Source of the DNA: Candidatus Omnitrophota bacterium
GTDB lineage: Bacteria; Omnitrophota; Gorgyraeia; Gygaellales; Profunditerraquicolaceae
DNA: 64,000 nt
Assembly (NCBI GenBank): GCA_022710715.1
Contig: JAKLGJ010000001.1
Location: 362,041-426,040, forward strand
Direction of reading: 5' to 3'
The notes beneath the pieces are model-generated. The model saw nothing but the letters and a program-made list of their open reading frames with translations, made no database searches and had not been told where the DNA came from. Shown piece after piece: positions 45,301 through 63,680 of this stretch (the first letter of the stretch is position 1; each line of letters opens with the position of its first letter). The position numbers and the translations under genes are program-made.

Positions 45301-48300
45301 TGATACCCAGTCAGCCAGCGATTCCGAAACCGTCACTATTACCGTAGCTAATGTCAACCGCGCGCCGGTATTGGCGGCGATCGGGGCAAAGAGCGGGTCG
45401 GAAAATACTTTATTGACCTTTACTTTGAGCGCTACGGATGCTGACAGCGATGCTTTGACCTATTCCTGCACTAATCTGCCTTCCGGATCGACTTTGAATG
45501 AATCGACCGGCGTGTTCAGCTGGACCCCGTCATATACCCAGGCAGCCACGTACGGGGCGGTGCATTTCGTGGTTTCCGACGGTAGTCTGACGGATACCGA
45601 GAATATCACCATTACCATCGCTAATACCAACCGCGCGCCGGTGCTTGATGCTATCGGTAATAAGTCGGTCAATGAAAACAGCGCTTTGAGTTTTGACCTT
45701 AATGCCACGGATGCGGATGATGATATCGTAGCTTACAGCGCTTCAGGTTTACCTGCCGGCGCGGTTTTCGACGCGGGGAACTTCAGCTGGACTCCGACGT
45801 ACTCCCAAGCAGGCACATACACCGTGACTTTTACCGCGGATGATCTTAGCGGCGGGACTGATTCCGAGACGATCACTATCACTGTGGGCAATCTGAACCG
45901 CGTGCCGGTGTTAGCGGCTATCGGGAATAAGGCCGTGGATGAGAATGCGCTGTTGAGTTTTGTGATCAGCGCTACTGATGCGGATAGCGATACCTTGACT
46001 TATTCCGCCACGAATTTGCCTTCGGGCGCTACTTTTACCGCCGGGACCAGGACTTTCGCCTGGACGCCGGGCGGCACGCAGGCCGGTAATTACAGTGTAT
46101 CTTTCAGCGTGACCGATCCTAACGGCGGCATCGATTCCGAGACGATCACTATTACCGTAGGCGATGTGAATGCTCCTCCGGTTCTGGCAGCTATCGGCGC
46201 TAAATCGGTGAATGAGAATGCGGCATTGAGCTTTGTGATCAGCGCTACTGATGGTGATGGCGACGCGTTGACCTATGCTGCCGCTAATCTGCCTTCCGGC
46301 GCTACTTTTACCGCCGGGACCAGGACTTTCGCCTGGACGCCGTCGTATACCCAGTCCGGTTCGTATACCGTGACTTTCAGCGTGGATGACGGTCTGGGCG
46401 GGACGGATTCCGAAGCGGTGGTGATTACTGTGGCTAATATGAATCGCGCGCCGGTGCTGGGAGCGGTGGGGAACAAAGCCGTGAATGAGAATGCGGCGTT
46501 GAGCTTTACGTTGAGCGCTACCGATGCGGACAGCGATACTTTAGTTTATTCTGCCACAGGTTTACCTGTCGGCGCTACTTTAGACAGCGCGACCGGGTCT
46601 TTTGCCTGGACGCCGACCTACGCGCAGTCGGGCAACTACAGCGTGACCTTCAGTGTCAGCGACGGCAACGGCGGGACGGATTCGGAAACCATCGGTATCG
46701 CGGTGAATAATGTCAACCGGGTGCCGGTGCTGGACGCGGTAGGCGCGAAATCGGTAGATGAAGGGGTAGCTTTGACTTTTACTTTGAACGCTGCTGACGC
46801 GGATAGCGATACTCTGACTTACGCGGCTGCTAATTTGCCTTCCGGCGCCACGTTTACCGCCGGCACGCGCACTTTCGCCTGGACGCCGGGCGGCACGCAA
46901 TCCGGAACTTACAATGTGACTTTCAGCGTGGATGACGGCAACGGCGGCACAGATTCGGAAACAATCGCGATTACCGTAAATAATGTCAATGTCGCGCCGG
47001 TGTTGAGCGCGATCGGCGCCAAGAGTGTGAATGAGAACGCGGCATTGAGTTTTGTGATCAGCGCTACGGATAGCGATGGAGACGCGATAACCTGCGCGGC
47101 TTCCAATCTACCCGCAGGCGCTACTTTTACCGCCGGGACCAGGACATTCGCCTGGACGCCGTCGTATACACAGTCCGGATCTTACACCGTGACTTTCAGC
47201 GTGGATGACGGTTTGGGCGGGACGGATTCCGAAGCGGTGGCGATTACGGTGGCTAATGTGAATCGCGTTCCGGTATTGGCGGCTGTGGGCAACAAAAACG
47301 TGGATGAAAACGTGGCGTTGAGTTTCAGCTTGAGCGCCACTGACGCAGATAGCGATACTTTGACATATTCCGGTGCCGGGATGCCTGTGGGCGCGACTTT
47401 TAATAGTGCCAACGGAGCGTTCAGCTGGACGCCGACCTATACCCAGGCCGGAAGCTATAGCGTAACTTTCAGCGCCAGCGACGGTAACGGCGGCGAGGAT
47501 TCCGAGGCTATCACTATTACTGTCGCGAATGTAAATCGCGTTCCGGTGTTGGCGGCAATCGGGGCAAAGAGCGTGGACGAGGGAACGGGTTTGAGCTTTA
47601 CGGTCAGCGCGACGGATGCGGATAACGATACCTTGACTTATACGGCTGCGGATGTGCCGGCTGGAGCGAGTTTCACTGCCGGAACCAGGACGTTCAGCTG
47701 GACTCCCAGTTGTCTGCAGTCGGGTGTGTATACGGTGACTTTCAGCGTGGATGACGGCAATGGCGGCACAGATTCCGAAGCGGTGGTTATCAGCGTGAAC
47801 AACGTGAATTGTCCGCCGGTGTTAGCGGCGATCGGCGCAAAGAGCGTTAACGAGAACGCGCAGTTGCAGTTTACGGTCAGCGCCACGGATCCGGAAGGCG
47901 ACAGCTTAACTTATTCCGCGGCGGGATTACCGGCGGGAGCGACTTTTGCGGGTTCGACATTTACCTGGACGCCGTCATATAGTCAGGCGGGTTCTGCTAC
48001 AGTGACGATTACTGCCGACGACGGTAACGGCGGCACGGATTCCGAAGCTGTGGTTATCAGCGTGGCGGATGTGAACCGCTCGCCGATCCTGGATCTGACC
48101 GGCAATAAGACGGTGAATGAGAACAGCGTTTTGAGTTTTGATATCAACGCGACTGATCCGGATGGCGACGTGGTGGCTTATAGCGCGACCGGTGTTCCTG
48201 CGGGCGCGGTATTCAGCGCGGGCAGCTTTAGCTGGACACCGTCATATACCCAGGCCGGTTCCTATACTGTGGTCTTTACCGCGGATGATCTCAATGGCGG

Positions 48301-51300
48301 GGAAGATTCGGAAACGATCACCATTACCGTGAATAATGTGAATCGCGCGCCGGTGCTGGCGGCGATCGGGAATAAGAGCGTGAATGAAGCCGCCGCTCTG
48401 GTTTTCAGCGTCAGCTCAACCGACGCAGACGGCCAGGCTTTGACTTTGTCCGCTGCGAACCTGCCTGCGGGCGCTACTTTTAACGCCGGGACCGGGGTGT
48501 TCAGCTGGACTCCTTCGTATTCCCAGGCCGGCGCATTTGCCGGGGTGCATTTCGAAGTTACCGACGGCGCGGCCACGGATAGCGAAGATATTACCATTAC
48601 GGTGAGCAATGTGAACCGGGAACCGGTTCTGGCCGCCATCGGCGCTAAAACGGTGAATGAAAACGTGCAATTGCAGTTTACCGGTTCCGCGACCGATGCG
48701 GACGGCGATGTTTTGACTTACAGCGCTACCGGATTGCCGGCAGGAGCGACCTTCGCGGGTTCGACTTTTACCTGGACGCCGACGTACGCGCAGTCCGGGA
48801 ATTTCACCGTGACCATCAGCGTGGCGGATACTAACGGCGGGACGGATTCCGAAGCGGTGACGATTTCCGTAGGTAACGTGAACCGGCCGCCGGTATTGGC
48901 TGCGGTGGGGAATAAGACTGTAGCCGAGAATGCGGCGTTAGGATTTACGGTCAACGCTACGGATCCGGACGGTGATGCAGTGACGCTATCTGCAGCGAAT
49001 CTGCCTTCCGGCGCGACGTTTAACGCTGCGACGGGCGCGTTCAGCTGGACTCCGGGTTACGCGCAAGCCGGGGCATACGCGACCGTGCAATTCGCAGCCA
49101 GTGATGGCTCTTTGAGTGATGCGGAAACCATTACGATCACTGTTACAAACACTGATACCACACCGGTTTTAGCGGCTATCGGAAACAAGACGGTGACGGA
49201 AAATGCGGCGCTGTCGTTTACGGTCAGCGCTGTTGACGTAGATGGCGACGCTTTGACGTATGCTGCGGCCGGATTGCCGGCCGGGGCTTCGTTCGCCAGC
49301 CAGGCATTTAACTGGACCCCGGGTTATGATCAGGCGGGTACCTATACGGTGACATTCTCGGTGGAGGATGGGGCGGGCAATAGCGATTCCGAAGCGGTTA
49401 CGATTACGGTGAGCAATGTTAACCGCGCGCCGGCGATGGCTGCGATCGGGAATAAGTCGGTGGTGGCTAAGTCCGAACTGACCTTTACCGTCAGCGCTAC
49501 TGATGCCGACGGCGACGCGGTGACTTATGCGGCTTCAGGTTTGTCGGCCGGTGCGACGTTTAATGCCGATTCCGGTGTGTTCAGCTGGATCCCGACCAAT
49601 GCCGACGCCGGGAATCATACCATTACTTTCAGCGCGACGGATGGTTTAGCTTCCGCTACCGAGGCGATCACCGTGGCAGTGGATGTCCTGGATGAAGAGC
49701 CGCCGTATCTGGATTCATTGAATCCGGAAGAGGGCGAAGTGCAGGTTTCGCGCGATTCCGACGTGTTCTTCTACCTGAAGGACGCGCTTAAGGGGGTCAA
49801 TAAGGATACGATCAATTTGAGCATCAAGCGCGAAGGCGACGCCGCGGCGACCAATGTTATCGTCAACGGGGTAAATCAGCTCTCATCGTATCCGAATAAC
49901 GTGATCCTCCAGAGCAGCAGCGGCAATTACGCGGTAAAGTACGATCCTCCGACCAGCCGCGACTATCGCTTTAAATACGAGCAGAAGATCACGGTGACAG
50001 TCAGCGGCCGCGACCTGGCCGGCAATCAGCTGGCGCCGTACACCTATGATTTCACTACCGCCATGCTGCTTAAGGGGCCGAACAAGAGGGTGAGTACCAC
50101 CACTACGACTACGGCTGAACCTGCTCCGGCGCCGGCAGGCGGCGTGGATGGCGCGGTGCAGCCGCCGGCTGCGACCCAGGTGGTGAATAAAGATAATTCC
50201 TGTCTGGTGATGAATAAATCCAGCAACAAAGTGTATATGGTCTGGCAGGACGACGCCGGACAGATCTGGTTCAATAAATCCGAGGACCGGGGGGTGACTT
50301 TTATCCAGGATACCCAGTTGACCGGCGCTTTGACCGGAACGAACCGCAATCCGCAGATGGCCGTGGATGATCCTGGGAACTTGTATGTGATCTGGGAGAA
50401 CGTGCAGACGGATAATTCGTCGGATCTGTATTTTGCCCGGCTGGATAATAACAGCGCTGCCTGGCAGATCGCGGTGATCCCGGCGGATATCGCGCTGGGC
50501 GTTGCGGCGAATCAGGCGCAGCCGTCTTTAGACGTAACTTCGAGCGGCACGGTGGTGATCGCCTGGGTCAACGGCGCTTCCGGTGTATATTATGCCCGGT
50601 CGACGGATCAGGGCGATAGTTTATGGAATCTGACTGCCGCGCAGACCAAACGGGTGGACGACGGGACTGCGGCGGCGTTTGCTTATCCGGAAATCAAGTT
50701 GAGCGTGAATAGTCAGAATAAGTATGTGGTCTGGAGCGCGGAGAAAAATAGCGAGCGCAATATTTATTTCAACGCTTTGAATAATCAGAATAATCGGGTT
50801 TACGCCCAGGATATTCAGATCAACGACGCGAATAGCGGCACTGCGGCGGACCGGCCGAGTCTGGCCATGCGGCCGGAAGTCGGCGGCGGCGGGCAGAAGG
50901 TGGGTATTTGCGCGGCCTGGGAAAATACCGGCGCTGACGGCGATACGGATATTTATTTCGACAAATCGGTTACCGGCGAGGTGTGGGGCGCGGATATTCA
51001 GGTCAACGAAGACGCGCAGACGCCGCAGGCGCAGAAAGAGCCGGCGCTGGCCATGGATGCCGACGGAAGTATTTTTGCGGTGTGGAGCGATTACCGCAAC
51101 GGCGAATGGGATATTTATTACGCCAATTGCCTGGATAACGGGTTGACTTTCAAGACGAATATTCTGGTGAATGCCGATTCCGGCACCGCGGTGCAGGATA
51201 AACCTTCCTTGTACTTGAGCGCGGACGGCAACCACGTGTGCATCTCCTGGACGGATTATCGTGACGGTAACGGAGCGATCTATTTTAACCGCAACTCCTA

Positions 51301-52045
51301 TGTGGATGAGGACACGACTGAAGAGTCTTTTGTGGATGATTCCGCCGGCGGGACGTTGACGGCCACCGGCAATGCGGATATTCAGCGGGCTTCGGTGGTG
51401 CTGCCGGGCAATGTGCTGGAAGTGCCTACGACCGTGACCATCACCAAAGTGGAATGCCCGCCGCCGGATGCCAACGAGTCGATCGCCGAGAAGGCGGTGG
51501 ATTTCGGGCCCAGCGGTACGGTATTCAAACAGCCGGTAACGATCAAAGTGCCGTATACCGCGGCGGATATGAGCGCGGTGGGGATCACCGATGCGCGGCG
51601 GCTGCGGCTGTTCTACTATAACCTGAAGACGTTGATGTGGGAAAAGCTGGCGGATTCGTATGTGGATACTACGAATCAGCTGATCTGCGCCGAGGTGCTG
51701 CATTTCTCGATCTACGGCGCGGGAGACGGCGGGCCGATCGCGCAGGCTGCGACTACGGGCAGCTCGGCTGCGCCTGCGGGCGGCGGTGGTGGCGGCGGCG
51801 GTGGCGGCGGGTGTTTCATCGCTACGGCTGCGTACGGTTCGTATGATGAGCCTAATGTGAAGATACTGCGGGTATTCAGAGATAAATGTTTGATGACCAA
51901 AGAGTGGGGCCGGAAGTTCGTGAAGTTCTATTATCGCCACAGCCCGGCGATCGCGGATTACATTGAGAGCCGCGAAGGGCTGAAGCTGATGGTGCGCTGG
52001 GCGCTCAAGCCGCTGGTGCTGGCTGCGCGCTCCGCCCTCCGCTAA
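42380..52045 (+). CDS. giant (3221 aa) secreted surface protein: beta-helix domain, He_PIG Ig, two FN3, 17 cadherin-like ~90-aa repeats, Ig-like, BNR/Asp-box propeller, and a Gly-run + Cys C-terminal module
   Basis: Single uninterrupted ORF with coding periodicity. N-terminal 143 aa identical to the 601-aa paralog. Asp-box motifs [17 protein letters not shown] and LDNGLTF. C-terminus G11[10 protein letters not shown]... Confidence 0.8.
45086..49700 (+). repeat. intragenic array of 17 tandem ~270-bp (~90-aa) cadherin-like / He_PIG-like Ig repeats
   Basis: Consensus [41 protein letters not shown]...[40 protein letters not shown]. Several units are about 90% identical at the nucleotide level. 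Confidence 0.85.
51812..52042 (+). other. conserved C-terminal module (giant paralog)
   Basis: [76 protein letters not shown], preceded by G11. Confidence 0.6.
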
Positions 52046-52125
52046 AGGGGACAGGTCCACCCAAAACGGCTCGTCGAGAAAATCGGACAGATGTGTCCCC
52101 TTTGAGATTTGCTGTGTCCCCTTTT
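52044..52125 (+). repeat. ~80-nt structured gene-end element, copy A, directly after the stop codon of the giant gene
   Basis: aggggacaggtccaccc...ggacagatgtgtcccct...tgtgtcccctttt. Its reverse complement recurs at 62636-62714. Confidence 0.8.
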
Positions 52126-52213
52126 AGGGACGGTGTGATGTGCGAGTTGTGAATGGAACCCCTGGGCAGTCTTCGTCCACGTTTTACTTTCCTTCGACTG
52201 ACTGCCATTCTGA

Positions 52214-52257
52214 TGCGGGGATGCTTCCGGGCAGAAGCATCCCCGGCTTTTTTTTTG
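52214..52257 (+). terminator. rho-independent terminator
   Basis: Stem cggggatgcttc / gaagcatccccg with loop cgggca, followed by T9. Confidence 0.75.
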
Positions 52258-52717
52258 AAGGACGCTCCCACAAAAAATGATTTACAGTACGGAATATAAG
52301 GTATAAAATACCAATATAAAGAGCGGAGTCCATGGATGCGGACAATATACGGTAGTGCTTAGGCAACTCTGAAAAAGGGTTGTCATTTTTTTTGATAGTC
52401 AGTATTTGACACGGTTGGCGCGAAATGTTGCAGCATTTGCATTACTGAAGTATCATTTGTTTTAATCTCGCAACAATAACTTATTGGTATGCTGGAGGTT
52501 ATTGTTAAAGTAGAAAAAAGATAGTTTTCAGAACACTTAGTCAGTTCAATGGTTAGCGTAATAGATTAATAATCTTAAGCTTGTGTCAGAAAGACGGTAT
52601 GAATTATGCTTATTTTAATGGGATGGGTTTTTTTGTGCCCAGAATAACCAGGGTGAAATTTTAGTCTATTCTACCTGGTCTGGTGGCGAATATGCTCCAG
52701 AATCTAAAAAATAAATA

Positions 52718-55700
52718 ATGACAAAAGAAGATCGGTTCTTTCCCCGTATTCTATTTTGTACGGCAATTCTTGCTGTTGTTTCATTTATTCCTGCCTATAT
52801 TTTTTCTGTTTCAGCCAATGAATCTGCCACGTCTTCCTGCCAGCATAATCAAGGAACTTGTTCCAAAGAGCCTCATTGTCCTGGAAAACCCAGTTATCCC
52901 AACCCTCCACCCGGTTGTCCCCAAAAGAAGTATTGCAGTCTTTATCCTATTGCGTTAAATGTAACAGTCATTAGTAATGCCAAGGTTGGAGACCGCATAC
53001 CTGATATCCTTAATGAGGGTGGCCCGGGCAATCTGGGTTGGCTTAGCTGGAATGGTAATAATAGCACTGCGATGTTAGTCAGGAGCTTAATCCCGCCTGG
53101 CGCAAGCTTATTGTACAGAAATCCTTATGATGAGCGCGATCATGTAGTTTCTCAAGGAGACTGGATCAGGGGAATGCCGGGTGATCATAATGGCAGCGCA
53201 ATACGGATTGCTCTAAATATGTTAAAAACCCAGCACGTAACTATACCCGTTTGGGATACTGTTAAAAAGCAGAAGGGAGAACTTCTGTATCATGTATCTG
53301 GATTCGCGAAGGTGCAGATAATTGATTTCAATTTAAGCAAAGACAAACGTATATCGGCGATTTATCTTGGCAAGGTGACGTGTGGTGACGAACAAAACCA
53401 ATCTCCAGTTGCTCATGCCGGAGTTGACCAGCAGGTAGCAATTGGCAGTACTGTTACTTTAGACGCCTCGGCTTCTTCTGATCCCGATGGTGATAATCTT
53501 ACCTATAAATGGGCTATTCTGACCAAACCAGATGAGAGTAGCGCTGTGCTTGTGAATGCTGATCAAGCTAATCCTACTTTCATCGCCGATAAATCCGGAC
53601 AATATACTGTCCAGCTCATTGTTAATGACGGTAAAGTCGATAGCCAACCGGCTGCAGTTACAATAAGCACTATCAATCGTCAGCCGGTTGCTAACGCAGG
53701 AGAGAATGTTTCTGCGCAAGTTGGCTCTGAAGTGAATTTGGATGGCAGCGGGTCTAGTGACCCAGATGGCGATCTCTTAAGCTACCTATGGAGTATTACA
53801 ACCAAGCCCCAGAACAGTAACGCGGTATTAGATCATACCGATATTGTAAAACCTTCCTTTGTTGCTGATGTAGGAGGGCAGTATACCGTTCAACTTATCG
53901 TTAACGACGGTAAACTCGACAGTGCTCCTGCTGTGGCAGTTATCAATACCTTAAATCAAGCGCCAATAGCAAATGCAGGCGCTGATGTCAATGTATTTGT
54001 CGGCGCGCTCATTAAACTGGATGGGAGCAATTCCAATGATCCCGATGGGGATCAATTAACCTATTCATGGAGTATTGTAAGCCAACCCGATGGAAGCAAT
54101 GCTGTGTTGCTGGATCCGGCTACAGCTACGCCGTCATTAACTCCCGATAAAGCCGGAACGTATGTAGTGCAATTGATCGTAAGCGACGGACAATTGGACA
54201 GTGTAGCGACAATAATCCGCGTAATCACGGAAAACCGCTCTCCGGCAGCTAATGCCGGGCAGGATATGAGCGTTAATCTCGGGCAGGTGGTGATTCTGGA
54301 TGGAAGCGCCTCCAGTGATCCTGACGGCGATCCGTTGACTTATATATGGAGTATTACGAATAAACCAGAGGGAAGTGGTACTGCTCTTGCCAATGCAGCT
54401 ACTTCAGCACCATCAATGACTCCCGATTTTATTGGGACATACGATGTGCAATTAATAGTTAATGATGGTAAAGTTGATAGCTCGACTTCAGTTGTGCATG
54501 TTACAGCTATTTCCGTCAATAAACCGCCCGAAGTTCATGCCGGTGACGATGTGACAATTACTTTCTCAGTCGATAGAGCAAATCTCAACGGTTCCGCAAG
54601 CGATGATGGGTTACCGTCAGGCGGTACATTAACAGTCTTGTGGAGTGAGGTAAGCGGGCCAGGCGCGGTTACTTTTGAAGACGCGACGTCTTTAATGACC
54701 ACAGCTAGTTTTTCTCAGGCTGGGACCTATGTTTTAAGGCTAACAGCCAGCGATTCTGTCCTTTCAACCAGCAGCGATATGACTGTAACGGTTACTATGG
54801 CTCCTCGGTGCCTTGCTGATCGCGATATACCGCCTCCGAGCGTCGATGGAAGCGGATCATGGGGATGGATCAACCAGGCTTCTTTGATAAATGCTCGTTC
54901 TGAACATACCGCGACACTTTTGCCGTCCGGAAAGGTCCTTGTTGTCGGGAGTAGTTCGAATGGAGGGGCGACTGCAGAGTTGTATGATCCGGCGACCCAA
55001 CGCTGGACTGAAGTAGCGTCTATGCATTATCCCCGTTTTGCGCATACTGCGACATTGCTGCCTGATGGGAAGGTATTGATTACAGGTGGATGGTCAGGTT
55101 CGAATTCGTATGCTTCTGCGGAAGTTTATGACCCTGCAACGAACACGTGGGCGGACGCCGCGCCGATGAACTCTGCTCGAAGCTGGCATACGGCGAATCT
55201 GTTGAGCACGGGTAAGGTTCTGGTTGTTGGGGGGAACGCAGGGACGGCAGCAGAACTTTACGATCCCGCGACGGATTCATGGGCTTCCGCCGGTTCTCTC
55301 AGCTTGAGCCATGTAGGTCATTCAGCAACAACATTAGCGAACGGCGATGTGCTTGTCATGGGAGGCCGTCCCGTGAATAATGCGACCGAGATCTATCATG
55401 TCGCGAGTAATTCGTGGGAACGTTTGAGCGATGCTCCCGTGGCCTGTGCTTTCTACAGGGCGGTGCTCCTGCCTGGCGGAAGGGTCCTGGTTACCGGCGG
55501 GTATAACGATTCCCAGAGATTGAAGGCCGTGCAGCTTTTCGATCCCTCGGTGAACCAGTGGACACGGGTCAAGGACATGAGTGTCGAGCGTGCCGATCAT
55601 GCTATCGCTATTCTTCCAGACGGGAAGGTGATGGTCGGTGGGGGGTACACCAATACGGATATTACCGATACTGTTGAGTTGTATGACGTTGTTGCCGATC

Positions 55701-58700
55701 AATGGACTAATGAGACCAGTTTGCCTTTAGCAAAAGCTTATTCCACCTGGACGCAATTCTCTGACGGGTCGATTTTGTCCGCGGGTGGATATCATGGCGG
55801 AGCTTTGTCCTCAACGGAAATTCTCGCAAAGGGGATCGCCGGATGGCGTAAGATTGCGTCTATGGGTTCGCCTCGATGGAATCATACTACCACGGCTCTT
55901 GCCGATGGCCGCGTTCTTGTCGCGGGCGGCGCCACGGTATGGAGTAATGCGCCGACCCAGGATGCTTTGGATACAGCCGAAATATATGACCCGGCAACAT
56001 CTCAGTGGTCAGCAACGGGATTAATGAATTTCAAGCGTTTCCGTTTCCAATCGGTTTTGCTTTGTGACGGCAGAGTATTGGCAGCAGGAGGGTATGAAAT
56101 GAATGGGAATAGCCTTGCTCAACCCACTGCCGAGATTTTTGATCCCGTAGCAAACGTTTGGACTAGAGTTGCTGATATGCATTATCCTAGAGGGCATGAA
56201 GCAATCGCGCTTTTGCGTGACGGAAGAGCTTTGATCGTCGGAGCTGTATTGGAAAACGGCGATGAGTTTATCACAAAGACCGCGGAAATTTATGAGCCCG
56301 GCCTTAATACGTGGATATTGACCAGTCCTATGCATGACGTGCGCGAGCATCCGCAGGTAACAACATTGAAAGATGGTCGGGTTTTGGTAACAGGGGGTGC
56401 TTATGTATGGTCAATTCCATCCGGGGTTGATATCTCGGCACAGTCTACCGCAGAGATTTATGATCCTTTGTCTGACCAATGGACATTAACAGCTCCGATG
56501 CATCGCCATCTTTCCGGCCACGAGTCAGTTTTACTCTCAGATGGCCGGGTAATGGTTATGGGTGGGATGAGTTATCCTGAGGGAGTGATTACCAGTGGTG
56601 CGGAGATTTACGATCCGGTCAGTGACACATGGACCGAAGTTGCGCCAATGTCCCAGGGACGTCTTGGTTTTTCTGCCGAGCTTTTGGGCGATGGCCGGAT
56701 TCTGGTCACCGGCGGTGGATCAGCTAACTGGTCTTTGGCTGAGATTTATGATCCTGTGACTAATGTTTGGCATGCGATTCCTTCTATGTTCCAGGGGCAT
56801 GGTTTTCTCTCTAATGGGGGAGCTGTTTTAAATGACGGTAGAGTCATGATCGCAGGAGGATGCAGCGGGTCGACCAGTGGTATAACCGAGCACGTCACTG
56901 GAGTCTTGTCGGAGGTTGAAATCTACGATCCCAATACCAGAAATTTGCCGCCGGCAGTAACCGCTGGCGCGGATCAAAGGATTGTTCTATCTAATAACGC
57001 CGTTTTGACCGGTACTGTCAGTGACGATGGCTTGCCCAGAGGGAATAGTGTTGCCGTCTCTTGGAGCCAATTAAGTGGACCGGCAGGTGTAAGTATTCTA
57101 GATCAACATTCGCAGGTCGCTCAGGCGAGTTTTTCGCAAGAAGGCACGTATGTTTTCCGGCTTACTGCTACGGATGGTGAATTGACCTCTTTTGATGAAG
57201 TGGTGATTACTGTTTTGCCTGTAGCTTCGGATGTTACCCCGCCTGATGTGTCGGTATCCGTCAGTCCTGGAAGCACGATCAACACTGGTGATGTCGTTCA
57301 GATCCGGGTCAGGGCTACGGATAATGTCGGTATTACCGCCTTGCAACTGACAGTTAACGGCAGCGTTTTGGCCCTGCAGCCTGATCCCCAGGATTCGGCT
57401 ATTCAGCAGGCGAGTTTTTCTTCCGAAGTCGCTGGGGTTTTCACTGCTTTAGCAGTTGCCCAAGACGCTGCTGGAAATCAGGGCCAGGCTTCATTGCAGA
57501 TCACCGTTAATGAGCAGACTACGCCTCCGCAGCCGCCGATAGTGGAAATTTCTTCGCCGGCAGACGGTGCACATCTTAGTATGACGCAGACATTCGTTGG
57601 AACAGTATTTTCGTCGAACTTGGTGAGTTACACTCTCGAATACTCGTTTGTCGGTGAGGATAACTTTATTACGTTCGCTACGGGGACTAATGCTGTCAAT
57701 CATGACGTTCTGGGGATTTTGAATACCAATGTTCTAATGAATGGATTCTACGATATCAGATTGACTGCGACAGATGCCAGCGGTCTTACAGTATCAATTA
57801 CAATGCGATACAGTGTCCAGAGTGATCTAAAGATAGGGCAATTCGGGTTTAGCCAGCAGGATCTGGTTATTCCGGTCAATGGTATGCCGCTATCCGTGAT
57901 CCGGACGTATAGTTCATTGAATCCGAATGCCGGTGATTTTGGGTATTCCTGGACGTATGCCATCCAGGATATGAATGTGCAATTCAATGAGTATCGGTCT
58001 GATAATAACGTTGAGTCATTTAGTCAGCGCACGGGTGGAAGCCGGGATATTTCCTTGACTCTGCCGGATGGCCGCCGGACGACATTCACGTATAATCTTC
58101 AAATGGAATCTGTTTTCGGCACGCCGAACTTACAAACAATACGGCAGCTAGCGGTCTGGACACCTCCTCCGGGCGTATATGATACCTTGACCCCGATCGT
58201 ATCCAATCGGCTGATTACTTTGTACAGCACTATAGAAAATACGAGAATTTCTTATTGGGAAGCTGATCCGCAGATGGGGAATATGGATGTTTATGATTTC
58301 CCGGCTTTTATATTGACAACGAAAGAAGGCGTTAAATATTTGATCACCAGGGAAGACCTCGGGAGCCATATGACGGACAGCGCTATTACGGTCCACGCGT
58401 ATGGTAAAGCCCATTTGAGCAGGATTACGGATAGGAATGGGAACTGGACCGAGATAGCTGCTTCGCGGATCGACAGTTACAATGCTCAAGGTGTCAATAC
58501 CCGTTCGGTCATTTTTCAAAGGGACAGTCAAAACCGTATTATATCAGTCACCGATCCTAATAGTCAGTCTAACGGTGGCCCGGCAGCAGTCACCTACGAT
58601 TATGACAGCTCAGGGAATTTGTTCCACGTCAACCGTTTAGTCAGTAATGAGTCCGGTCATGCCCCGGTATATGAGACCACTACATTTCTATACCTTAATC

Positions 58701-61700
58701 CTAACTATCCGCATTACATAACCGATATCCAGGATCCGCGCGGGTTAACTCCGTTAAGGACTGTTTATGACAGCGAAGGCAGGCTTATTGGAACTATCGA
58801 TGCTCAAGGTAATCAGATCAGGCTTACCCATGATATTGCCGGTCATAGTGAAACTGTATATGACCGGCTGGGAAATCCAACTATCCACACATACGACGAC
58901 CGGGGTAATGTTATAGCTACCGTTGATGCGTTGGGCAATACGGTTGAATGCCAATACGACGATAACAACAATTTGATCGCAGAAATCGATGCTTTGGGCC
59001 ACTCGACTATTTATACCTATGATGACCGGGGAAACCAACTGACACGTCGCGACCCCTTAGGCAATGTCACCACTTTGACGTATGATTCTTTAGGGAATAT
59101 TTTAACAGAAACTGATCCGCTTGGTTATGTGACTGAAAATACGTATGATGCGCACGGGAATCTGTTGACGGTCAAAGATGCAATGGGCAACATTACGACT
59201 AATACGTACGATGACAACGGGAATCTGGCAACATCTACCAATGCGCTGGGCAGGACGACTTCTTATCAATATGATAATGCCGGGCATATGATTCAGCAAA
59301 CTGACGCGTTGGGGAATGCGGCGACGTTTACCTACGATTCTAACGGGAATAAACTCACTCAAACCGTAAATCGCGTGAACGGCAGTGAGGCTGAAGCTAT
59401 AACCACCCAATATGTGTACGATTCAGAGAATAGAGTTGTAAGAACCGTTTATCCTGATAGCACCAGCACACAAACTGTGTATAACAACATCGGTAAACAG
59501 GCGGCGGTTATTGATCAATCAGGCAGGCAGACGGCATTCGAGTATGATTCTACCGGTAATCTGGTGAAGACTACGTATCCGGACGATACAACTCAGACTT
59601 CAACGTATGATGTCAATGGCCGGCAATTAAGTACGACTGACGCTGCCGGCCATGTAGTTAGTTTCCACTATGACGCTGTGGGGCAGTTGATACGGACTAC
59701 GTATCCGGATAATACATTCTCGACAACAACATATGACCCTGCCGGACGCACAATCGCGGTTACTGATGCCAAAGGCAACACCACGACGTATTTCTATGAT
59801 AATGCCAATCGTCAGATTTCGATACAATTCGCCGATAACACTGCGCAGGCTACTGAGTATGATGCTTCGGGCAGGATGATCTCTAAGACTGATCAAACTG
59901 GCCTTCAGACCCGGTATGAGTATGACTCTTTGGGCCGGCTGATTAGAGTAACCGACGCGTTGGAGAATGTTACCAGTTATACCTATGATCAAATAGGCAA
60001 TCAACTTACCCAGACAGATGCCAATGGGCATACGACGACCTTTACGTATGACGCCGTGGGGCATCGAATCAGGAGGACTTTGCCTCTGGGGATGTTCGAG
60101 ACGTATCAGTATGACTCAACCGGACAGATGGTTCAGAAAACCGATTTTAACGGAAGAACCACGACGTACAGTTATGATATCATGAATCGTTTAGTCCAGA
60201 AGATACCTGATCCCAGTTTCGGTGCGCCGGCCATTTCATTTATTTATAATAGCTTGGGCCAGCGTATATCCATGAATGACGCGAGTGGCACGACGACCTA
60301 TACGTATGATAACCGCAATCGGTTACTGACAAAATCTACTCCTGAAGGAACGCTAACCTATACGTATGACGTGGTGGGTAATGTCCGGAGTATACGATCG
60401 TCGCATAGTAACGGCGTTTCAGTTGACTACAGCTATGATGTTATGAATCGGCTTGCCACCGTTGCAGATAACCTGTTGCCAGATAATAAAGTGACGAGCT
60501 ATTCGTATGATCAGGTGGGGAATGTGCAGAGTTATATTTATCCCAACGGGGTGCAGTCTGCGTATACGTATAATAATTTGAACCGACTGACAAATTTAAC
60601 GGTGGCTCGATCTTCAACCCTCGCTTCATATACCTATACGCTGGGACCTGCCGGGAATCGACTTTCTGTAGCGGAGTCGGCTGGTCGACGGGTAAATTAT
60701 TCCTATGATGCAACCTATAAATTAACCGGAGAATCCATTTCAGGTGATAATAACGGCGGCAATGGTTCGATATCATATACTTATGACCCTGTAGGCAATC
60801 GCTTGGCCCGGTCTTCGAGTGTTTCGGCTATTTCCAGCCAGGGTTTTACTTATGACGCCAACGATCGGTTGTCTATCGATGGCTATGATGCCAACGGCAG
60901 CACCGTTTCGTCAGGGTCAGATACTTATACGTATGATTTTGAGAATCGTCTCATCAGTTCTACGGCTGGCGGGGGCGTGAGATTTGTTTACGATGGCGAC
61001 GGCAATCGTGTAGCGAAGACTTCGGGAGGGGCTACGATCCAATATCTGGTCGATGACCGAAATCTTACCGGATATGCACAGGTAATGGAAGAGATTGCGG
61101 GGGGAACCGTACAGAAGAGTTATACTTATGGCCTGGCGCGGATCTGCCAGAATCAGGGCGGCACGGTGAGTTTCTATGGTTATGACGGGCATGGGAATGT
61201 GCGGGTACTGACCGATTCCAATGGGGCCGTGACGGATACGTATGATTATGATGCGTTTGGGAATATGATTCAACATGTTGGAGATACTGCCAATATGTTT
61301 TTATATTCCGGTGAACAACTAGATTCGAATGTTGGCTTTTATTTCTTACGCGCTCGGTACATGAATCCTTTTAATGGACGATTCTTAACATTAGATAGTT
61401 ACATGGGTGATATGTGGTTGCCATTATCGTTGCATAAATATTTTTATGCATATAATAATGCGATTAATGCTGTTGATCCCTCTGGTCAAATAACTTATTT
61501 GGATGTAATGTCGATAGATGACCTGATTGACGCTCCCATTTTTATTAAATCTAATAGAGTGAGTGATAAATCAATTATTATGAAGTCTAAGGCGAAAAGC
61601 CTTTTATCTGTGGTAGAATCGAGGGCTCAAGAATGGTTTGGAAGACCTTACGAATTTGGAGCAAAAGGTGATAAAGAACCTGATTACGCCATAGATTGTA

Positions 61701-62026
61701 GTCATTTTATTCAAAAGGTTTATAAAACACATGAATGCGGTACAGCCAATTATCATCTGCACAAAGACGAATGGGAGCGTTTAACAGCTTTAGAATCTTC
61801 TAAGCCCGAAGATTGTTTATTGCCTGCCGACATAATCGTATGGCAGGGGAAAAATAGTAAGGGTGATTATGTTGGGCATGTTGCTATTTGGACAGGATGG
61901 GGTGGGGGTGTGGCATTGCTTCATGCGAATTTGTCCTATGGCATGGTCTTACATACACCCAATTATGTTGACCAAATGTCCCAATTTACTGTTAGAAAGT
62001 ACTATCGGTATATAAAAGCAAGGTAG
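52718..62026 (+). CDS. RHS/YD-repeat polymorphic toxin (3102 aa): N-terminal unknown domain, ~6 PKD-like domains, ~20 Kelch blades, Ig/PKD domains, YD repeats, RHS core, and an NlpC/P60-like C-terminal toxin domain
   Basis: Kelch motifs (ARSEHTATLLPSGKVLVVGG...YDPAT..W). YD repeats (YTYDDRGNQLT, YQYDNAGHMIQ...). RHS core RARYMNPFNGRFLTLDSY...YAYNNAINAVDPSGQ. C-terminal DCSHF / GHVAIW / LLHAN. Confidence 0.85.
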   Translation: MTKEDRFFPRILFCTAILAVVSFIPAYIFSVSANESATSSCQHNQGTCSKEPHCPGKPSYPNPPPGCPQKKYCSLYPIALNVTVISNAKVGDRIPDILNEGGPGNLGWLSWNGNNSTAMLVRSLIPPGASLLYRNPYDERDHVVSQGDWIRGMPGDHNGSAIRIALNMLKTQHVTIPVWDTVKKQKGELLYHVSGFAKVQIIDFNLSKDKRISAIYLGKVTCGDEQNQSPVAHAGVDQQVAIGSTVTLDASASSDPDGDNLTYKWAILTKPDESSAVLVNADQANPTFIADKSGQYTVQLIVNDGKVDSQPAAVTISTINRQPVANAGENVSAQVGSEVNLDGSGSSDPDGDLLSYLWSITTKPQNSNAVLDHTDIVKPSFVADVGGQYTVQLIVNDGKLDSAPAVAVINTLNQAPIANAGADVNVFVGALIKLDGSNSNDPDGDQLTYSWSIVSQPDGSNAVLLDPATATPSLTPDKAGTYVVQLIVSDGQLDSVATIIRVITENRSPAANAGQDMSVNLGQVVILDGSASSDPDGDPLTYIWSITNKPEGSGTALANAATSAPSMTPDFIGTYDVQLIVNDGKVDSSTSVVHVTAISVNKPPEVHAGDDVTITFSVDRANLNGSASDDGLPSGGTLTVLWSEVSGPGAVTFEDATSLMTTASFSQAGTYVLRLTASDSVLSTSSDMTVTVTMAPRCLADRDIPPPSVDGSGSWGWINQASLINARSEHTATLLPSGKVLVVGSSSNGGATAELYDPATQRWTEVASMHYPRFAHTATLLPDGKVLITGGWSGSNSYASAEVYDPATNTWADAAPMNSARSWHTANLLSTGKVLVVGGNAGTAAELYDPATDSWASAGSLSLSHVGHSATTLANGDVLVMGGRPVNNATEIYHVASNSWERLSDAPVACAFYRAVLLPGGRVLVTGGYNDSQRLKAVQLFDPSVNQWTRVKDMSVERADHAIAILPDGKVMVGGGYTNTDITDTVELYDVVADQWTNETSLPLAKAYSTWTQFSDGSILSAGGYHGGALSSTEILAKGIAGWRKIASMGSPRWNHTTTALADGRVLVAGGATVWSNAPTQDALDTAEIYDPATSQWSATGLMNFKRFRFQSVLLCDGRVLAAGGYEMNGNSLAQPTAEIFDPVANVWTRVADMHYPRGHEAIALLRDGRALIVGAVLENGDEFITKTAEIYEPGLNTWILTSPMHDVREHPQVTTLKDGRVLVTGGAYVWSIPSGVDISAQSTAEIYDPLSDQWTLTAPMHRHLSGHESVLLSDGRVMVMGGMSYPEGVITSGAEIYDPVSDTWTEVAPMSQGRLGFSAELLGDGRILVTGGGSANWSLAEIYDPVTNVWHAIPSMFQGHGFLSNGGAVLNDGRVMIAGGCSGSTSGITEHVTGVLSEVEIYDPNTRNLPPAVTAGADQRIVLSNNAVLTGTVSDDGLPRGNSVAVSWSQLSGPAGVSILDQHSQVAQASFSQEGTYVFRLTATDGELTSFDEVVITVLPVASDVTPPDVSVSVSPGSTINTGDVVQIRVRATDNVGITALQLTVNGSVLALQPDPQDSAIQQASFSSEVAGVFTALAVAQDAAGNQGQASLQITVNEQTTPPQPPIVEISSPADGAHLSMTQTFVGTVFSSNLVSYTLEYSFVGEDNFITFATGTNAVNHDVLGILNTNVLMNGFYDIRLTATDASGLTVSITMRYSVQSDLKIGQFGFSQQDLVIPVNGMPLSVIRTYSSLNPNAGDFGYSWTYAIQDMNVQFNEYRSDNNVESFSQRTGGSRDISLTLPDGRRTTFTYNLQMESVFGTPNLQTIRQLAVWTPPPGVYDTLTPIVSNRLITLYSTIENTRISYWEADPQMGNMDVYDFPAFILTTKEGVKYLITREDLGSHMTDSAITVHAYGKAHLSRITDRNGNWTEIAASRIDSYNAQGVNTRSVIFQRDSQNRIISVTDPNSQSNGGPAAVTYDYDSSGNLFHVNRLVSNESGHAPVYETTTFLYLNPNYPHYITDIQDPRGLTPLRTVYDSEGRLIGTIDAQGNQIRLTHDIAGHSETVYDRLGNPTIHTYDDRGNVIATVDALGNTVECQYDDNNNLIAEIDALGHSTIYTYDDRGNQLTRRDPLGNVTTLTYDSLGNILTETDPLGYVTENTYDAHGNLLTVKDAMGNITTNTYDDNGNLATSTNALGRTTSYQYDNAGHMIQQTDALGNAATFTYDSNGNKLTQTVNRVNGSEAEAITTQYVYDSENRVVRTVYPDSTSTQTVYNNIGKQAAVIDQSGRQTAFEYDSTGNLVKTTYPDDTTQTSTYDVNGRQLSTTDAAGHVVSFHYDAVGQLIRTTYPDNTFSTTTYDPAGRTIAVTDAKGNTTTYFYDNANRQISIQFADNTAQATEYDASGRMISKTDQTGLQTRYEYDSLGRLIRVTDALENVTSYTYDQIGNQLTQTDANGHTTTFTYDAVGHRIRRTLPLGMFETYQYDSTGQMVQKTDFNGRTTTYSYDIMNRLVQKIPDPSFGAPAISFIYNSLGQRISMNDASGTTTYTYDNRNRLLTKSTPEGTLTYTYDVVGNVRSIRSSHSNGVSVDYSYDVMNRLATVADNLLPDNKVTSYSYDQVGNVQSYIYPNGVQSAYTYNNLNRLTNLTVARSSTLASYTYTLGPAGNRLSVAESAGRRVNYSYDATYKLTGESISGDNNGGNGSISYTYDPVGNRLARSSSVSAISSQGFTYDANDRLSIDGYDANGSTVSSGSDTYTYDFENRLISSTAGGGVRFVYDGDGNRVAKTSGGATIQYLVDDRNLTGYAQVMEEIAGGTVQKSYTYGLARICQNQGGTVSFYGYDGHGNVRVLTDSNGAVTDTYDYDAFGNMIQHVGDTANMFLYSGEQLDSNVGFYFLRARYMNPFNGRFLTLDSYMGDMWLPLSLHKYFYAYNNAINAVDPSGQITYLDVMSIDDLIDAPIFIKSNRVSDKSIIMKSKAKSLLSVVESRAQEWFGRPYEFGAKGDKEPDYAIDCSHFIQKVYKTHECGTANYHLHKDEWERLTALESSKPEDCLLPADIIVWQGKNSKGDYVGHVAIWTGWGGGVALLHANLSYGMVLHTPNYVDQMSQFTVRKYYRYIKAR
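61491..62023 (+). other. C-terminal toxin domain after the RHS core, NlpC/P60-like papain-fold (predicted peptidoglycan hydrolase)
   Basis: Cys-His-His arrangement in the order typical of NlpC/P60: AIDCSHFIQKVY ... GDYVGHVAIWTG ... LLHAN. Confidence 0.45.
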
Positions 62027-62220
62027 CAAATGGTGAACAAGGGAACTGGTCCGACGATTTTGTCTCGTTGACAATAGTGGCAAAAGTGCTGGATCAAGGT
62101 ACAATAGTGGACGCTCCTGAAGGTGTCACCCTTGCTGGTTCTGCCGCGTGAGGACGATCAGCTGGGGCACTCCCTCACAAAAAATGATTTACAGGTAGAG
62201 GGAAAAAGCAAAAATAGTTG

Positions 62221-62248
62221 TTGACAAATCCGGGAATGCTGGTACAAT
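62221..62248 (+). promoter_or_regulatory. sigma70-like promoter of the cold-shock gene
   Basis: TTGACA, 16-nt spacer, TACAAT. Confidence 0.5.
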
Positions 62249-62367
62249 TATCAATGTAGTAAACAAAGATTAGAAGTCGAAAGCCGAAAAGCAAAGAAGT
62301 CTAGCCTTTCGGTTTTTTTATTTTCTACTTCGTTTACTATAATCTTAGAAGAAAAGGAGGTTACACA

Positions 62368-62568
62368 ATGGTAAAAGGAAAAGTAAAGTGGTTCTCTAAC
62401 GAGAAGGGTTATGGATTTATAACTCCTGAGTCCGGTAAAGATGTATTCGTACATCATAGCGTCATTCAGGGTGAGGGATATAAAACACTCACCGAGGGAC
62501 AGGATGTTGAGATGGAAATCACCCAGGGCCCTAAAGGTGAGCAAGCTTCGAAAGTAATCAAGCTGTAA
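62368..62568 (+). CDS. cspA: cold-shock protein (CspA family)
   Basis: 66 aa with [16 protein letters not shown] (RNP1) and VFVHHS (RNP2). Strong RBS AAGGAGG. Confidence 0.9.
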
Positions 62569-62591
62569 TCTGAAGTTTTCACCACGAAAAA

Positions 62592-62627
62592 TGGCTCGGC
62601 AGGAAACTGCCGGGCCATTTTTTTTTA
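62592..62627 (+). terminator. rho-independent terminator after the csp gene
   Basis: Stem ggctcggcag / ctgccgggcc with loop gaaa, followed by T9. Confidence 0.7.
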
Positions 62628-62635
62628 AGATGGGC

Positions 62636-62714
62636 AAAGGGGACACAGCAAATTGCGAAGGGGACACATCTGTCCGATTTTCTCGACGAGCCCAAAAGGG
62701 TGGACCTGTCCCCT
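62636..62714 (-). repeat. ~80-nt structured gene-end element, copy B (inverted), directly after the stop codon of the minus-strand response-regulator gene
   Basis: The reverse complement matches 52046-52125 apart from a flipped loop (aaaac/ttttg) and a few substitutions. Confidence 0.8.
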
Positions 62715-63069
62715 ATTTCAGGGCGAGTTCGACGGATTGGACCAGGGTGTCAGTGGGCACGGGTTTGGTCAGGTAATCTACGATGTTGTATTTGACCGCT
62801 TCTTTCTTGATCTCGGGGCTGGCAAAGGCGCTGACAAAGATGATCTTGACCAGCTTGTCGAAACCGCGCACTTCCCGGGCGACTTCCAGGCCGTCGATCT
62901 TGGGCATGCGGATGTCCAGCAGGATCAGGTCCGGTTTGAACGATTTGGCCTGGTCGATGGCGCTTTTGCCGTCGGAAACAGAGGAAACTTCGTAATTGCG
63001 CTTGGAAAAAATGTTCTGTAAGGAATTCTGTGCGTCTTGTTCGTCTTCGCAGATCAGTATACGCTTCAT
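62713..63069 (-). CDS. single-domain CheY-like response-regulator receiver
   Basis: MKRILICEDEQ (acidic pocket), LLDIRMP (phospho-Asp), FVSAF and YLTKP. RBS GGGAGG is present. Confidence 0.8.
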   Translation of the reverse strand: MKRILICEDEQDAQNSLQNIFSKRNYEVSSVSDGKSAIDQAKSFKPDLILLDIRMPKIDGLEVAREVRGFDKLVKIIFVSAFASPEIKKEAVKYNIVDYLTKPVPTDTLVQSVELALK

Positions 63070-63125
63070 TGGGCCTCCCGTAAAAGTTATCCACAGGCAG
63101 TCCGGGACTCCCTGTGGATAAGTGG

Positions 63126-63680
63126 TTAGAGGACCGGCGGGGAGCTGATGCACAGCGCCCGGGCTACGGTTGAGCCGGTGTTCTTCAATGTATGTCTCTG
63201 CAGGCTGGTGGAGTAGAGGCTGTCGCCTTTTTCTGCATGGCCGTCTTTTTTGAGCCGATATGTTTTGCCTTCCATGGAAACTTCCATTTCCCCGTCTAAT
63301 ACATAAATAAACCGTTCCACCTTTTTGATGGTTTCTTCCAAGTACTGGGATTCCCCGGGTTTGAGAGAGATAAAGGTGGGGAGCATTTTCTTGGCCAGCG
63401 GGATAGTAGTCAGGATTTCCAGGAATTCCAGATAGATATCCTGTTTAACATTTCCGGCGCGGAATTCCGCCGGTTCCGGCAACTCATTTTCCATGTAAGC
63501 GTAGAACTCGGATAGTTTCAGCCCGAATACTTCAGCCAGCTTGCGATGGCATTCTACGGTGCCGGTCATTTTTCCGGATTCGATCTTGCTCACAATGGCT
63601 TTGTCCACATCAGAGCGTTTAGCGAGCTCGGTAAGAGTCATGTTTCCGCGTAACAATTTCAGTTTTGAGCCGATGTCCAT
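63126..63680 (-). CDS. XRE-family HTH transcriptional regulator with a C-terminal cupin domain
   Basis: LKLLRGNMTLTELAKRSDVDKAIVSKIE HTH, then a cupin-like C-terminal half. GGAG RBS lies before the ATG at 63680; an alternative start is at 63692. Confidence 0.7.
   Translation of the reverse strand: MDIGSKLKLLRGNMTLTELAKRSDVDKAIVSKIESGKMTGTVECHRKLAEVFGLKLSEFYAYMENELPEPAEFRAGNVKQDIYLEFLEILTTIPLAKKMLPTFISLKPGESQYLEETIKKVERFIYVLDGEMEVSMEGKTYRLKKDGHAEKGDSLYSTSLQRHTLKNTGSTVARALCISSPPVL

Follow-up and report, generated by a model that had tools for sequence, protein, structure and literature searches.

The 64,000-nt stretch analyzed here (hereafter, the window) derives from a Candidatus Omnitrophota bacterium (assembly GCA_022710715.1, contig JAKLGJ010000001.1) and carries, at positions 52718–62026 of the forward strand, an ATG-started open reading frame (ORF) of 3102 amino acids (aa) that is by far the longest frame in its region. 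The coordinates and start of this ORF, as given in an initial annotation made from the sequence alone, were confirmed. Exact-protein look-ups and BLAST show that its product is identical in seven retrieved assemblies (L001, L002, L003, L017, L019, L022, and L024), among them the metagenome-assembled genome (MAG) GCA_035390565.1 and one 1.62 Mb JGI contig; the corresponding NCBI entry is HOW42795.1, named ‘PKD domain-containing protein’ and assigned to Candidatus Omnitrophota bacterium. We consider it probable that the gene encodes a Sec-exported RHS/YD-repeat polymorphic toxin with a wall-hydrolase tip, carried as a single-gene cassette that has no linked immunity gene.

Domain content was determined from Pfam and NCBIfam scans together with direct reading of the sequence, and all features of the gene described here lie on the forward strand. 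The protein is predicted to begin with a cleavable Sec-type signal peptide (aa 1–33; 52718–52816), composed of a charged start (MTKEDRFFPR), a 19-residue hydrophobic core (ILFCTAILAVVSFIPAYIF), and SVSA ahead of the putative cleavage site, which is followed by NES; the homologues have cleavable-looking AXA signal peptides immediately before a conserved Cys. The adjoining region, originally described as a single Cys/Pro-rich unknown domain, instead consists of two parts: a Cys/Pro-rich linker (aa 34–72) that is not conserved among homologues, and a conserved, uncharacterized domain of ~150 aa (aa 73–223; 52934–53386) that was delimited by comparison with the N-termini of giant RHS proteins. This domain has the pattern CxLYPIAL...PGNFGWLSW...GDWV..PG...VPVWD...GFA...FLG..CG, in which Cys73 and Cys222 are invariant, and shares 39–47% identity with the far N-terminal ends of six further giant RHS proteins; profile searches returned no significant match to it in Pfam, NCBIfam, or PDB sequences.

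Beyond the conserved domain are five tandem PKD or K319L-like PKD domains (aa ~226–700; 53393–54817), detected with Pfam and as a repeat family (D1) with a 279-nt period, and then fourteen Kelch blades (aa ~720–1410; 54875–56947) that match Kelch_1, Kelch_6, and related Pfam models. The blades are marked by 14 AE[IL]YDP-type motifs (aa 753–1400) spaced 44–59 aa apart, and most likely form two seven-bladed beta-propellers, the split into two being a prediction. A further K319L-like PKD domain (aa 1416–1499) and Ig-like domains (Big_7 at aa 1516–1552) complete the N-terminal array (56948–57817), and this mid region is 36–48% identical to many RHS homologues. Of the six K319L/PKD-like units, five thus precede the Kelch region and one follows it; the figure of about 20 Kelch blades in the initial annotation is too high. 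A full-length search gave 2649 matches at E ≤ 1e-10, and PKD-rich giant RHS proteins are abundant in metagenomes. Among the best 120 of these 2649 homologues, 119 have PKD domains and 7 have Kelch domains as well; therefore, the PKD/Kelch N-terminal architecture is a minority variant among RHS proteins, not a novelty, and the suggestion that it is unusual is correct only in part.

The N-terminal array is followed by DUF6531 (aa 1704–1758) and an RHS/YD-repeat shell (aa ~1760–2843), which together span 57818–61246 and were identified with Pfam, NCBIfam, and PDB sequence matches. The shell contains 18 RHS_repeat stretches (PF05593, E = 4e-117) and 14 stretches of YD repeats (TIGR01643); it is homologous to the solved Rhs cages 8h8a and 7q97 (E ~1e-51 in the PDB sequence search) and to the bacterial teneurin-like protein 9pt5 (E = 4e-39 across ~900 residues). 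The subsequent RHS-associated core (aa 2844–2924; 61247–61489) gives a full-length match to Rhs_assc_core (TIGR03696; 46.8 bits vs. a cut-off of 32.5), and the core motifs quoted in the initial annotation map to aa 2878–2895 and 2918–2924. Arg2880, Asp2893, and Asp2920 are placed where the self-cleaving aspartyl protease has its catalytic Arg and its two Asp, an apparatus that has been described for both RHS and teneurin-like proteins (PMC13018210), and the core is predicted to cleave after Gln2924. With the repeats, the complete core, and a variable C-terminal domain all present, the original identification of the protein as an RHS polymorphic toxin was upheld.

The last 178 residues (aa 2925–3102; 61490–62023) form the putative toxin domain, as delimited by Pfam, PDB alignments, AlphaFold2, and Foldseek. 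It opens with a linker of ~45 aa that has low prediction confidence (the first ~34 residues are disordered in the model), and a canonical NlpC/P60 core lies at aa 2975–3081 (61640–61960; Pfam). The match to PF00877 (NLPC_P60) scores 28.8 bits when the domain is scanned by itself and 25.3 bits in the full-length protein, against a cut-off of 23, and CHAP and C92 appear as weaker relatives in the Pfam scan. In a PDB sequence search the NlpC/P60 enzymes 4fdy, 7cfl, and 4xcm were recovered at E = 0.003–0.005, with the motifs DCSHF, GHVAIW, and LLHAN (starting at aa 2993, 3053, and 3067) aligned to their catalytic Cys, His, and His. The triad Cys2994–His3054–His3069 has the canonical, non-permuted order, and all 23 aligned NlpC/P60 sequences have Cys2994 and His3054 (Cys70 and His130 in domain numbering). 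AlphaFold2 produced an unusable model from the single sequence (pLDDT 31.5) and a model with pLDDT 74 and pTM 0.70 from the 23-sequence alignment. The best Foldseek matches of the latter in the PDB were MepS/Spr, CwlO, 4fdy, and other peptidoglycan DL-endopeptidases (probability 1.00, E = 6e-6 to 3e-4), and TM-scores to MepS, Spr, and CwlO were 0.6–0.7 when normalized by target length.

The structural check proposed for aa 2925–3102 in the initial annotation, run with AlphaFold2 and Foldseek, gave a fold that matches peptidoglycan endopeptidases, and a non-hydrolase fold was not seen. Pfam, the PDB sequence alignments, and the model agree on an NlpC/P60 tip with the Cys...His...His arrangement that had been noted. 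The alternative of a Tae-type enzyme was not borne out, as the resemblance is to housekeeping P60-type endopeptidases; no PDB code that we take to be Tae or Tse1 occurs among the PDB sequence matches or the 50 listed Foldseek matches. Sequence and model together support assignment of the domain, in family and fold, to the canonical P60-type NlpC/P60 cysteine peptidases. A circularly permuted branch with His before Cys, exemplified by the toxins Tox-Act1 and TseH, is lipid-directed, whereas the canonical order is peptidoglycan-directed (PMC12994826); the Cys-before-His order thus argues for the peptidoglycan-directed branch. The enzyme would most likely act on the stem peptides of peptidoglycan, either as a gamma-D-Glu-diamino-acid endopeptidase or as a related amidase. 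The GC content of the toxin domain (0.386; third-position 0.33) is lower than that of the shell (0.464; third-position 0.48), which fits the usual swapping of tips by recombination.

The toxin domain has few relatives. A word-index homologue search with the C-terminal domain gave no match, and exhaustive searching of 1.84 billion representatives with HMMER recovered only 27 matches at E ≤ 1e-3, comprising a fragment of the same RHS protein, three relatives (P0122, P0123, and P0135), and otherwise ordinary NlpC/P60 proteins. P0122 (E = 2e-12) and P0123 (E = 3e-11) are close; P0135 is weaker (E = 1.7e-4) and was grouped with them by common motifs. A tail of the form ...KGxYxGHxA...LLH...NYV...YYRYxK is common to the relatives, and P0135 and two further loci, L009 and L010, have the C-terminal tail of the subfamily. 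The frame of P0122 is open to the contig start, P0123 is a stand-alone protein of 303 aa, and P0135 (locus L007) is preceded by an RHS core motif (...NRYMYVGGNPIIYKDPTGY). When 185,579 species-representative genomes, a set without the source MAG, were scanned with the toxin-subfamily alignment, only housekeeping NlpC/P60 lipoproteins (e.g., from Chryseobacterium) were found, and a scan of viral contigs gave no match. By these searches, the domain defines a very rare NlpC/P60 subfamily.

P0122, P0123, and P0135 are each followed, −1 to 21 nt downstream, by a gene for a 183–208-aa product that has a hydrophobic, signal-like or lipoprotein-like N-terminus. A profile search with these three products defined a previously unannotated family of six proteins in 5.8 billion sequences, all with hydrophobic N-termini, and a toxin of this subfamily likewise stands directly before the genes of two newly found members. 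Each of the five independent metagenomic relative loci therefore has a gene for a 183–208-aa protein with a hydrophobic N-terminus within 21 nt of the toxin (L004 511–1137; L005 960–1511; L007 1212–1784; L009 722–1339; L010 179–799; identified by profile search and context). Homology links the L005 and L007 downstream proteins (E = 3e-10), the L004 protein has no significant pairwise similarity to either, and a Pfam scan gave sub-threshold hints only (e.g., DUF3828 at E = 0.002–0.008). These proteins are likely immunity proteins, and the five-of-five pairing has the signature of a toxin–immunity module acting outside the cytoplasm; the hydrophobic N-termini fit an extracytoplasmic target and do not separate wall from membrane. 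At L007, an ankyrin-repeat protein with a hydrophobic N-terminus comes after the candidate immunity gene.

Unlike every close relative of the toxin domain, the RHS cassette in the window has no linked immunity gene. The RHS stop codon is separated by 341 nt (62027–62367) from csp, which encodes a 66-aa cold-shock domain protein (62368–62568, forward strand; family scan) and is followed by genes for a response regulator and a helix–turn–helix (HTH)-cupin regulator. This spacer, put at ~340 bp in the initial annotation, contains only 27- and 33-aa ORFs with TTG/GTG starts and a strong promoter-like site upstream of csp (62221–62248, 11/12 matches). Searches by tblastn and hidden Markov model with the six immunity-family proteins found no relative in the window or the following 8 kb, translated in six frames (best E = 2.7). 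The earlier observation that an adjacent immunity gene is missing is thus sustained, and the sequence supports the absence of a linked immunity gene at this locus. We also considered csp itself as the immunity gene and rejected it, as it is an ordinary cold-shock protein with its own promoter and is present in an RHS-less genome too. The csp gene with its leader (62262–62621) matches the Rfam cspA thermoregulator below threshold (39.7 bits vs. a gathering threshold of 78, E = 1e-8). The interval from the RHS stop codon to csp showed no terminator, and read-through from the RHS gene into csp is therefore possible.

In almost all teneurin-like loci, an immunity gene lies immediately downstream, and in chimeric teneurin-like constructs the shell gave no protection to the Escherichia coli cells expressing them (PMC13018210); therefore, the absent immunity gene at the RHS locus is a genuine, if small, oddity. 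A complete peptidoglycan pathway is reported for Omnitrophota (10.64898/2026.06.07.730766), so the producer should, in principle, be vulnerable to a wall hydrolase set free in its periplasm.

An exact look-up of the csp protein across public assemblies led to a sister genome (L023; GCA_025490955.1) and a fragment (L025), both of which have flanks 96–98% identical to the window but are without the RHS gene. By blastn, L023 3340–3438 corresponds to window 52156–52254 and L023 4202–5577 to window 62202–63597 (95–96% identity), and no L023 match lies between 52254 and 62202; homology stops at ~52246–52254 and restarts at ~62202–62206. Reading the junctions directly delimits a strain-specific cassette of ~9.95 kb (52246–62206, edges within ~10 nt) that consists of the RHS promoter, a ~400-nt leader, the RHS ORF, and a ~180-nt 3′ tail, with no other gene. 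The RHS gene is therefore a strain-variable, single-gene accessory cassette and dispensable. In L023, a giant CFI-box-CTERM gene with its terminator is followed by a 0.76 kb segment, the csp promoter, csp, and the genes for the response regulator and the HTH-cupin protein. The 0.76 kb segment contains two small overlapping genes of 114 and 98 aa (L023 3543–4180; L025 31–327); their layout resembles that of a type II toxin–antitoxin pair, but the family scan gave only a sub-threshold YhaV match (E = 0.045). A foreign origin of the RHS gene was not convincing by composition, given GC contents of 0.39–0.52 across the gene and 0.41 for the first 42 kb of the window.

An exact 19-mer, CACAAAAAATGATTTACAG, is present just inside each end of the cassette, at 52269–52287 and at 62176–62194 (both forward strand), the second copy being 174 nt upstream of csp. 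Detected in a repeat search, it lies within a 26-nt direct repeat and occurs twice in the window, where 0.01 copies would be expected by chance; L023 has no copy. Both copies overlap a −35-like TTTACA, and the left copy overlaps the −35 hexamer of a promoter-like site at 52281–52309 (10/12 matches); the 19-mer may be either a scar left by recombination or a csp-type promoter/UP element that has been duplicated. About 55 nt past this promoter-like site, the RHS leader has a terminator-like hairpin with a T8 run (52362–52384), which could produce a short leader transcript or act as an attenuator before the AT-rich leader of ~400 nt; the leader region at 52281–52384 has no Rfam match.

A second repeat brackets the RHS gene and csp together, as a 79-nt inverted repeat (52046–52124 and 62636–62714) with arms that are 90% complementary. 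It was considered as the ends of a mobile or invertible element and rejected: L023 has the right arm without the left, the cassette edges lie elsewhere, and copies occur at unrelated sites. Further copies of this ~80-nt repeat are found at L008 1–71 and L019 19713–19796; each copy has three GGGGACA motifs, and three of the four abut or overlap the stop codon of a neighboring gene. Around the left arm there is a 126-nt indel relative to L023 (52030–52155), and the insertion has changed the last residues of the giant protein encoded upstream. A metagenome scan for the repeat, in a collection without the source contig, found one unrelated locus only. The dispersed repeat looks like a small miniature inverted-repeat transposable element (MITE)- or repetitive extragenic palindromic (REP)-like element that targets the ends of genes. 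A perfect palindrome with two DnaA-box consensus nonamers (TTATCCACA-N17-TGTGGATAA; 63087–63121) separates the genes for the response regulator and the HTH-cupin protein, and a similar DnaA-box palindrome lies beside the dispersed repeat at the unrelated locus L008 (~95–132).

Immediately upstream of the RHS gene, 42380–52045 encodes a 3221-aa protein with 18 He_PIG stretches, PKD domains, a BNR-like region, and 15–17 stretches each of the Big_9 and cadherin-like models. This protein ends in a Gly11 run and a CFI-box-CTERM sorting domain (NF041770, 105 bits vs. a cut-off of 40), and its gene is an outlier in GC content (0.54 vs. 0.41 for the rest of the window). The first part of the window (1–42180) is occupied by a long same-strand exopolysaccharide/cell-surface cluster that encodes several GT1/GT4 glycosyltransferases, asparagine synthase, polysaccharide deacetylase, UDP-GlcNAc 2-epimerase, and an acyltransferase, and that ends with genes for 511- and 601-aa proteins with no family match. 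Past the right end of the window (L001 21428–29309; L018/L019 11778–20201), 2–10 kb downstream of the RHS gene, are genes for a GspC-like protein (T2SSC and PDZ; 29.3 bits vs. 27) and a GspG-like pseudopilin, with unannotated genes for 304–311-aa and 1842–1869-aa proteins between them. Type II secretion-like loci have been described beside giant genes in Omnitrophota (10.1101/2023.11.21.568195), and the GspC- and GspG-like genes near the RHS locus resemble them.

Taken as a Sec-exported polymorphic toxin, the protein would be carried across the inner membrane by its signal peptide, after which the N-terminal array (the conserved domain, six PKD domains, 14 Kelch blades, and Ig-like domains) would keep the protein on the cell surface and bind a target cell. 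Judging from the solved Rhs shells to which this region is homologous, DUF6531 and the RHS repeats would close a shell around the last 178 residues, and the RHS core, which has the requisite motif, would cut after Gln2924 using Arg2880, Asp2893, and Asp2920. The freed NlpC/P60 domain would then cut the stem peptides of peptidoglycan in the envelope of a target bacterium. The producer might be protected by encapsulation of the toxin during export, by an unlinked protector, or by a target range that excludes the producer itself.

Several observations weigh against this interpretation. The search for an immunity gene spans 72 kb, and the largest contig of the genome is 1.62 Mb. The alignment behind the structural model consists of preselected NlpC/P60 homologues, so the fold match depends in part on the sequence match. 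In the core, the first Asp motif is LDSYMG/DSYMG where the canonical form is DPxG, and Asp2893 and Asp2920 are 27 residues apart versus the usual ~22; self-cleavage could be impaired. The nearby candidates for passage across the outer membrane are only the GspC- and GspG-like genes. The use of the protein in predation on bacteria is conjecture, and the only cultured Omnitrophota predator attacks archaea, which lack peptidoglycan, according to a report cited in 10.64898/2026.06.07.730766.

Of the other explanations, the one that we take most seriously, although we judge it to be rather unlikely, retains the toxin and holds that an immunity protein does exist, either unlinked or of an unrecognizable family, or that the peptidoglycan chemistry of the producer is resistant. 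The apparent lack of immunity would then reflect the extent of the sequence searched, which was the window plus 8 kb; the source genome is in neither scanned collection (metagenome or species-representative), and immunity families diverge fast, as the dissimilarity of the L004 protein to its L005 and L007 counterparts illustrates; moreover, some protection would be expected in a phylum with a complete peptidoglycan pathway (10.64898/2026.06.07.730766). Nevertheless, at each of the five relative loci, and at nearly every teneurin-like RHS locus (PMC13018210), the immunity gene is directly downstream, and the alignment to L023 leaves the RHS gene as the sole gene of the entire variable cassette.

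An improbable alternative is that the protein is not a weapon but a surface adhesin, with an NlpC/P60 end that serves in remodeling of the producer’s wall, separation, anchoring, or local digestion at a partner. Such a protein would need no immunity gene, in line with the failure to find one in the 72 kb; the closest structures to the tip are the housekeeping endopeptidases MepS and CwlO instead of dedicated effectors; and the gene adjoins both the giant adhesin-like CFI-box-CTERM gene and the exopolysaccharide cluster, in a phylum whose giant proteins have been proposed to serve in adhesion and the degradation of walls (PMC10066038; 10.1101/2023.11.21.568195). Against an adhesin, the closest relatives of the domain occur in toxin–immunity pairs, in one case after an RHS core; an enzyme inside an RHS shell and behind a complete self-cleavage core is a hallmark of a delivered toxin; and the gene is dispensable, as it is missing from the sister genome. 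Still less credible is an NlpC/P60 fold turned to another substrate, such as lipid or acyl groups (as in Tox-Act1 and TseH) or a non-peptidoglycan amide bond in an archaeal or eukaryotic target. The great divergence of the subfamily, with so few matches among 1.84 billion representatives, and the attack of the cultured Omnitrophota predator on archaea (as cited in 10.64898/2026.06.07.730766) would be compatible with this, but the lipid-directed members are permuted whereas Cys2994 precedes His3054 in the tip, and the best matches of the tip are peptidoglycan endopeptidases.

If the protein is a Sec-exported toxin with a wall-hydrolase tip, it appears to work most like the class represented by WapA of Bacillus subtilis, which is reportedly a Sec-dependent, wall-associated RHS toxin. 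The two have in common a signal peptide, surface-binding domains, an RHS shell, a C-terminal toxin, and no type VI secretion system (T6SS) parts, and one Kelch, PKD, and RHS homologue (P0077) is annotated CWBP200, the old name of WapA. However, WapA carries a tRNase toxin and is paired with the neighboring immunity gene wapI in a monoderm host, whereas here the tip is a putative wall hydrolase, an adjoining immunity gene is missing, and the presumably diderm host would also need a path through an outer membrane. Tae1–4 and Tse1 are small, stand-alone, antibacterial T6SS amidases of the NlpC/P60 superfamily that cut peptidoglycan peptides in the periplasm of the target and are countered by periplasmic Tai immunity proteins. 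The tip shares their superfamily, and the hydrophobic N-termini encoded downstream of its relatives suggest periplasmic immunity, as with Tai; it differs in being fused to an RHS protein and in having no linked immunity gene at the window locus. No PAAR or VgrG domain was detected in the RHS protein by Pfam, and no T6SS, EagR, or VgrG genes are among its neighbors; the protein is thus not predicted to be a T6SS-delivered Rhs effector. MepS/Spr of E. coli and CwlO of B. subtilis are the best structural matches and have the same Cys–His–His order, but identity to them is only 17–22%, the tail of the tip (NYVD...YYRYxK) is found only in its toxin relatives, and the tip is fused behind an RHS cage.

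Among catalogued toxins, Tox-NLPC/P60 is listed as an RHS-borne class with no assigned immunity family (Zhang, Aravind and colleagues 2012, PMC3482391; e.g., Hoch_2166 of Haliangium). As here, RHS repeats are followed by a C-terminal papain-like peptidase that is predicted to degrade target walls; the listed members are from Bacteroidetes and deltaproteobacteria with T6SS, PVC, or TcdB/TcaC-type delivery, whereas the present protein is from Omnitrophota and has a Sec signal only. Bacterial teneurin-like proteins have a superfold of FN-plug, NHL, and YD-shell (Raoelijaona et al., 2026, PMC13018210; PDB 9pt5, 9ifo). The RHS protein resembles them in its homologous YD shell, Arg/Asp/Asp motif, Sec signal peptide, N-terminal adhesion modules, and polymorphic C-terminus (~15 kDa in that family), but its Kelch propellers are far upstream, with PKD/Ig domains between them and the shell, and it would fall outside the teneurin-like family as defined because no NHL domain was detected by Pfam. 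The giant surface proteins of Omnitrophota exceed 20,000–30,000 aa, have many transmembrane helices, are mostly unannotated, and are RHS-fold-like only (West-Roberts et al., 2023, preprint; Seymour et al., 2023). They share with the RHS protein their phylum, a large, exported, multi-domain build, proximity to type II secretion-like genes, and a proposed role in prey adhesion and wall digestion; the RHS protein differs in its length of 3102 aa, in its bona fide RHS toxin architecture, and in its recognizable hydrolase tip.

The kind of protein is already known, given that the 2012 catalogue contains RHS toxins that end in an NlpC/P60 domain and that giant RHS proteins with many PKD domains are common. 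For Omnitrophota, no earlier account of a bona fide RHS toxin was found in the searchable literature, and the present one appears to be the first that is explicit. The biology of this phylum is almost wholly genome-inferred, and the foremost hypothesis on its giant surface proteins is that they attack the walls of other cells. The candidate cognate immunity family of six proteins belongs with a toxin class for which the immunity column of the 2012 catalogue is empty. The locus also provides a clean natural case of a toxin cassette without linked immunity that is absent from a sister genome, by which the means of avoiding self-lysis in the producer becomes testable. More speculatively, and in our view doubtful as yet, ultra-small and possibly episymbiotic or predatory Omnitrophota may direct an immunity-free RHS wall hydrolase, exported by Sec and the type II secretion-like machinery encoded nearby, against bacterial hosts or prey and not against kin. 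If true, polymorphic-toxin hardware would have been turned into a tool of predation or attachment, with the producer protected by encapsulation and target specificity.

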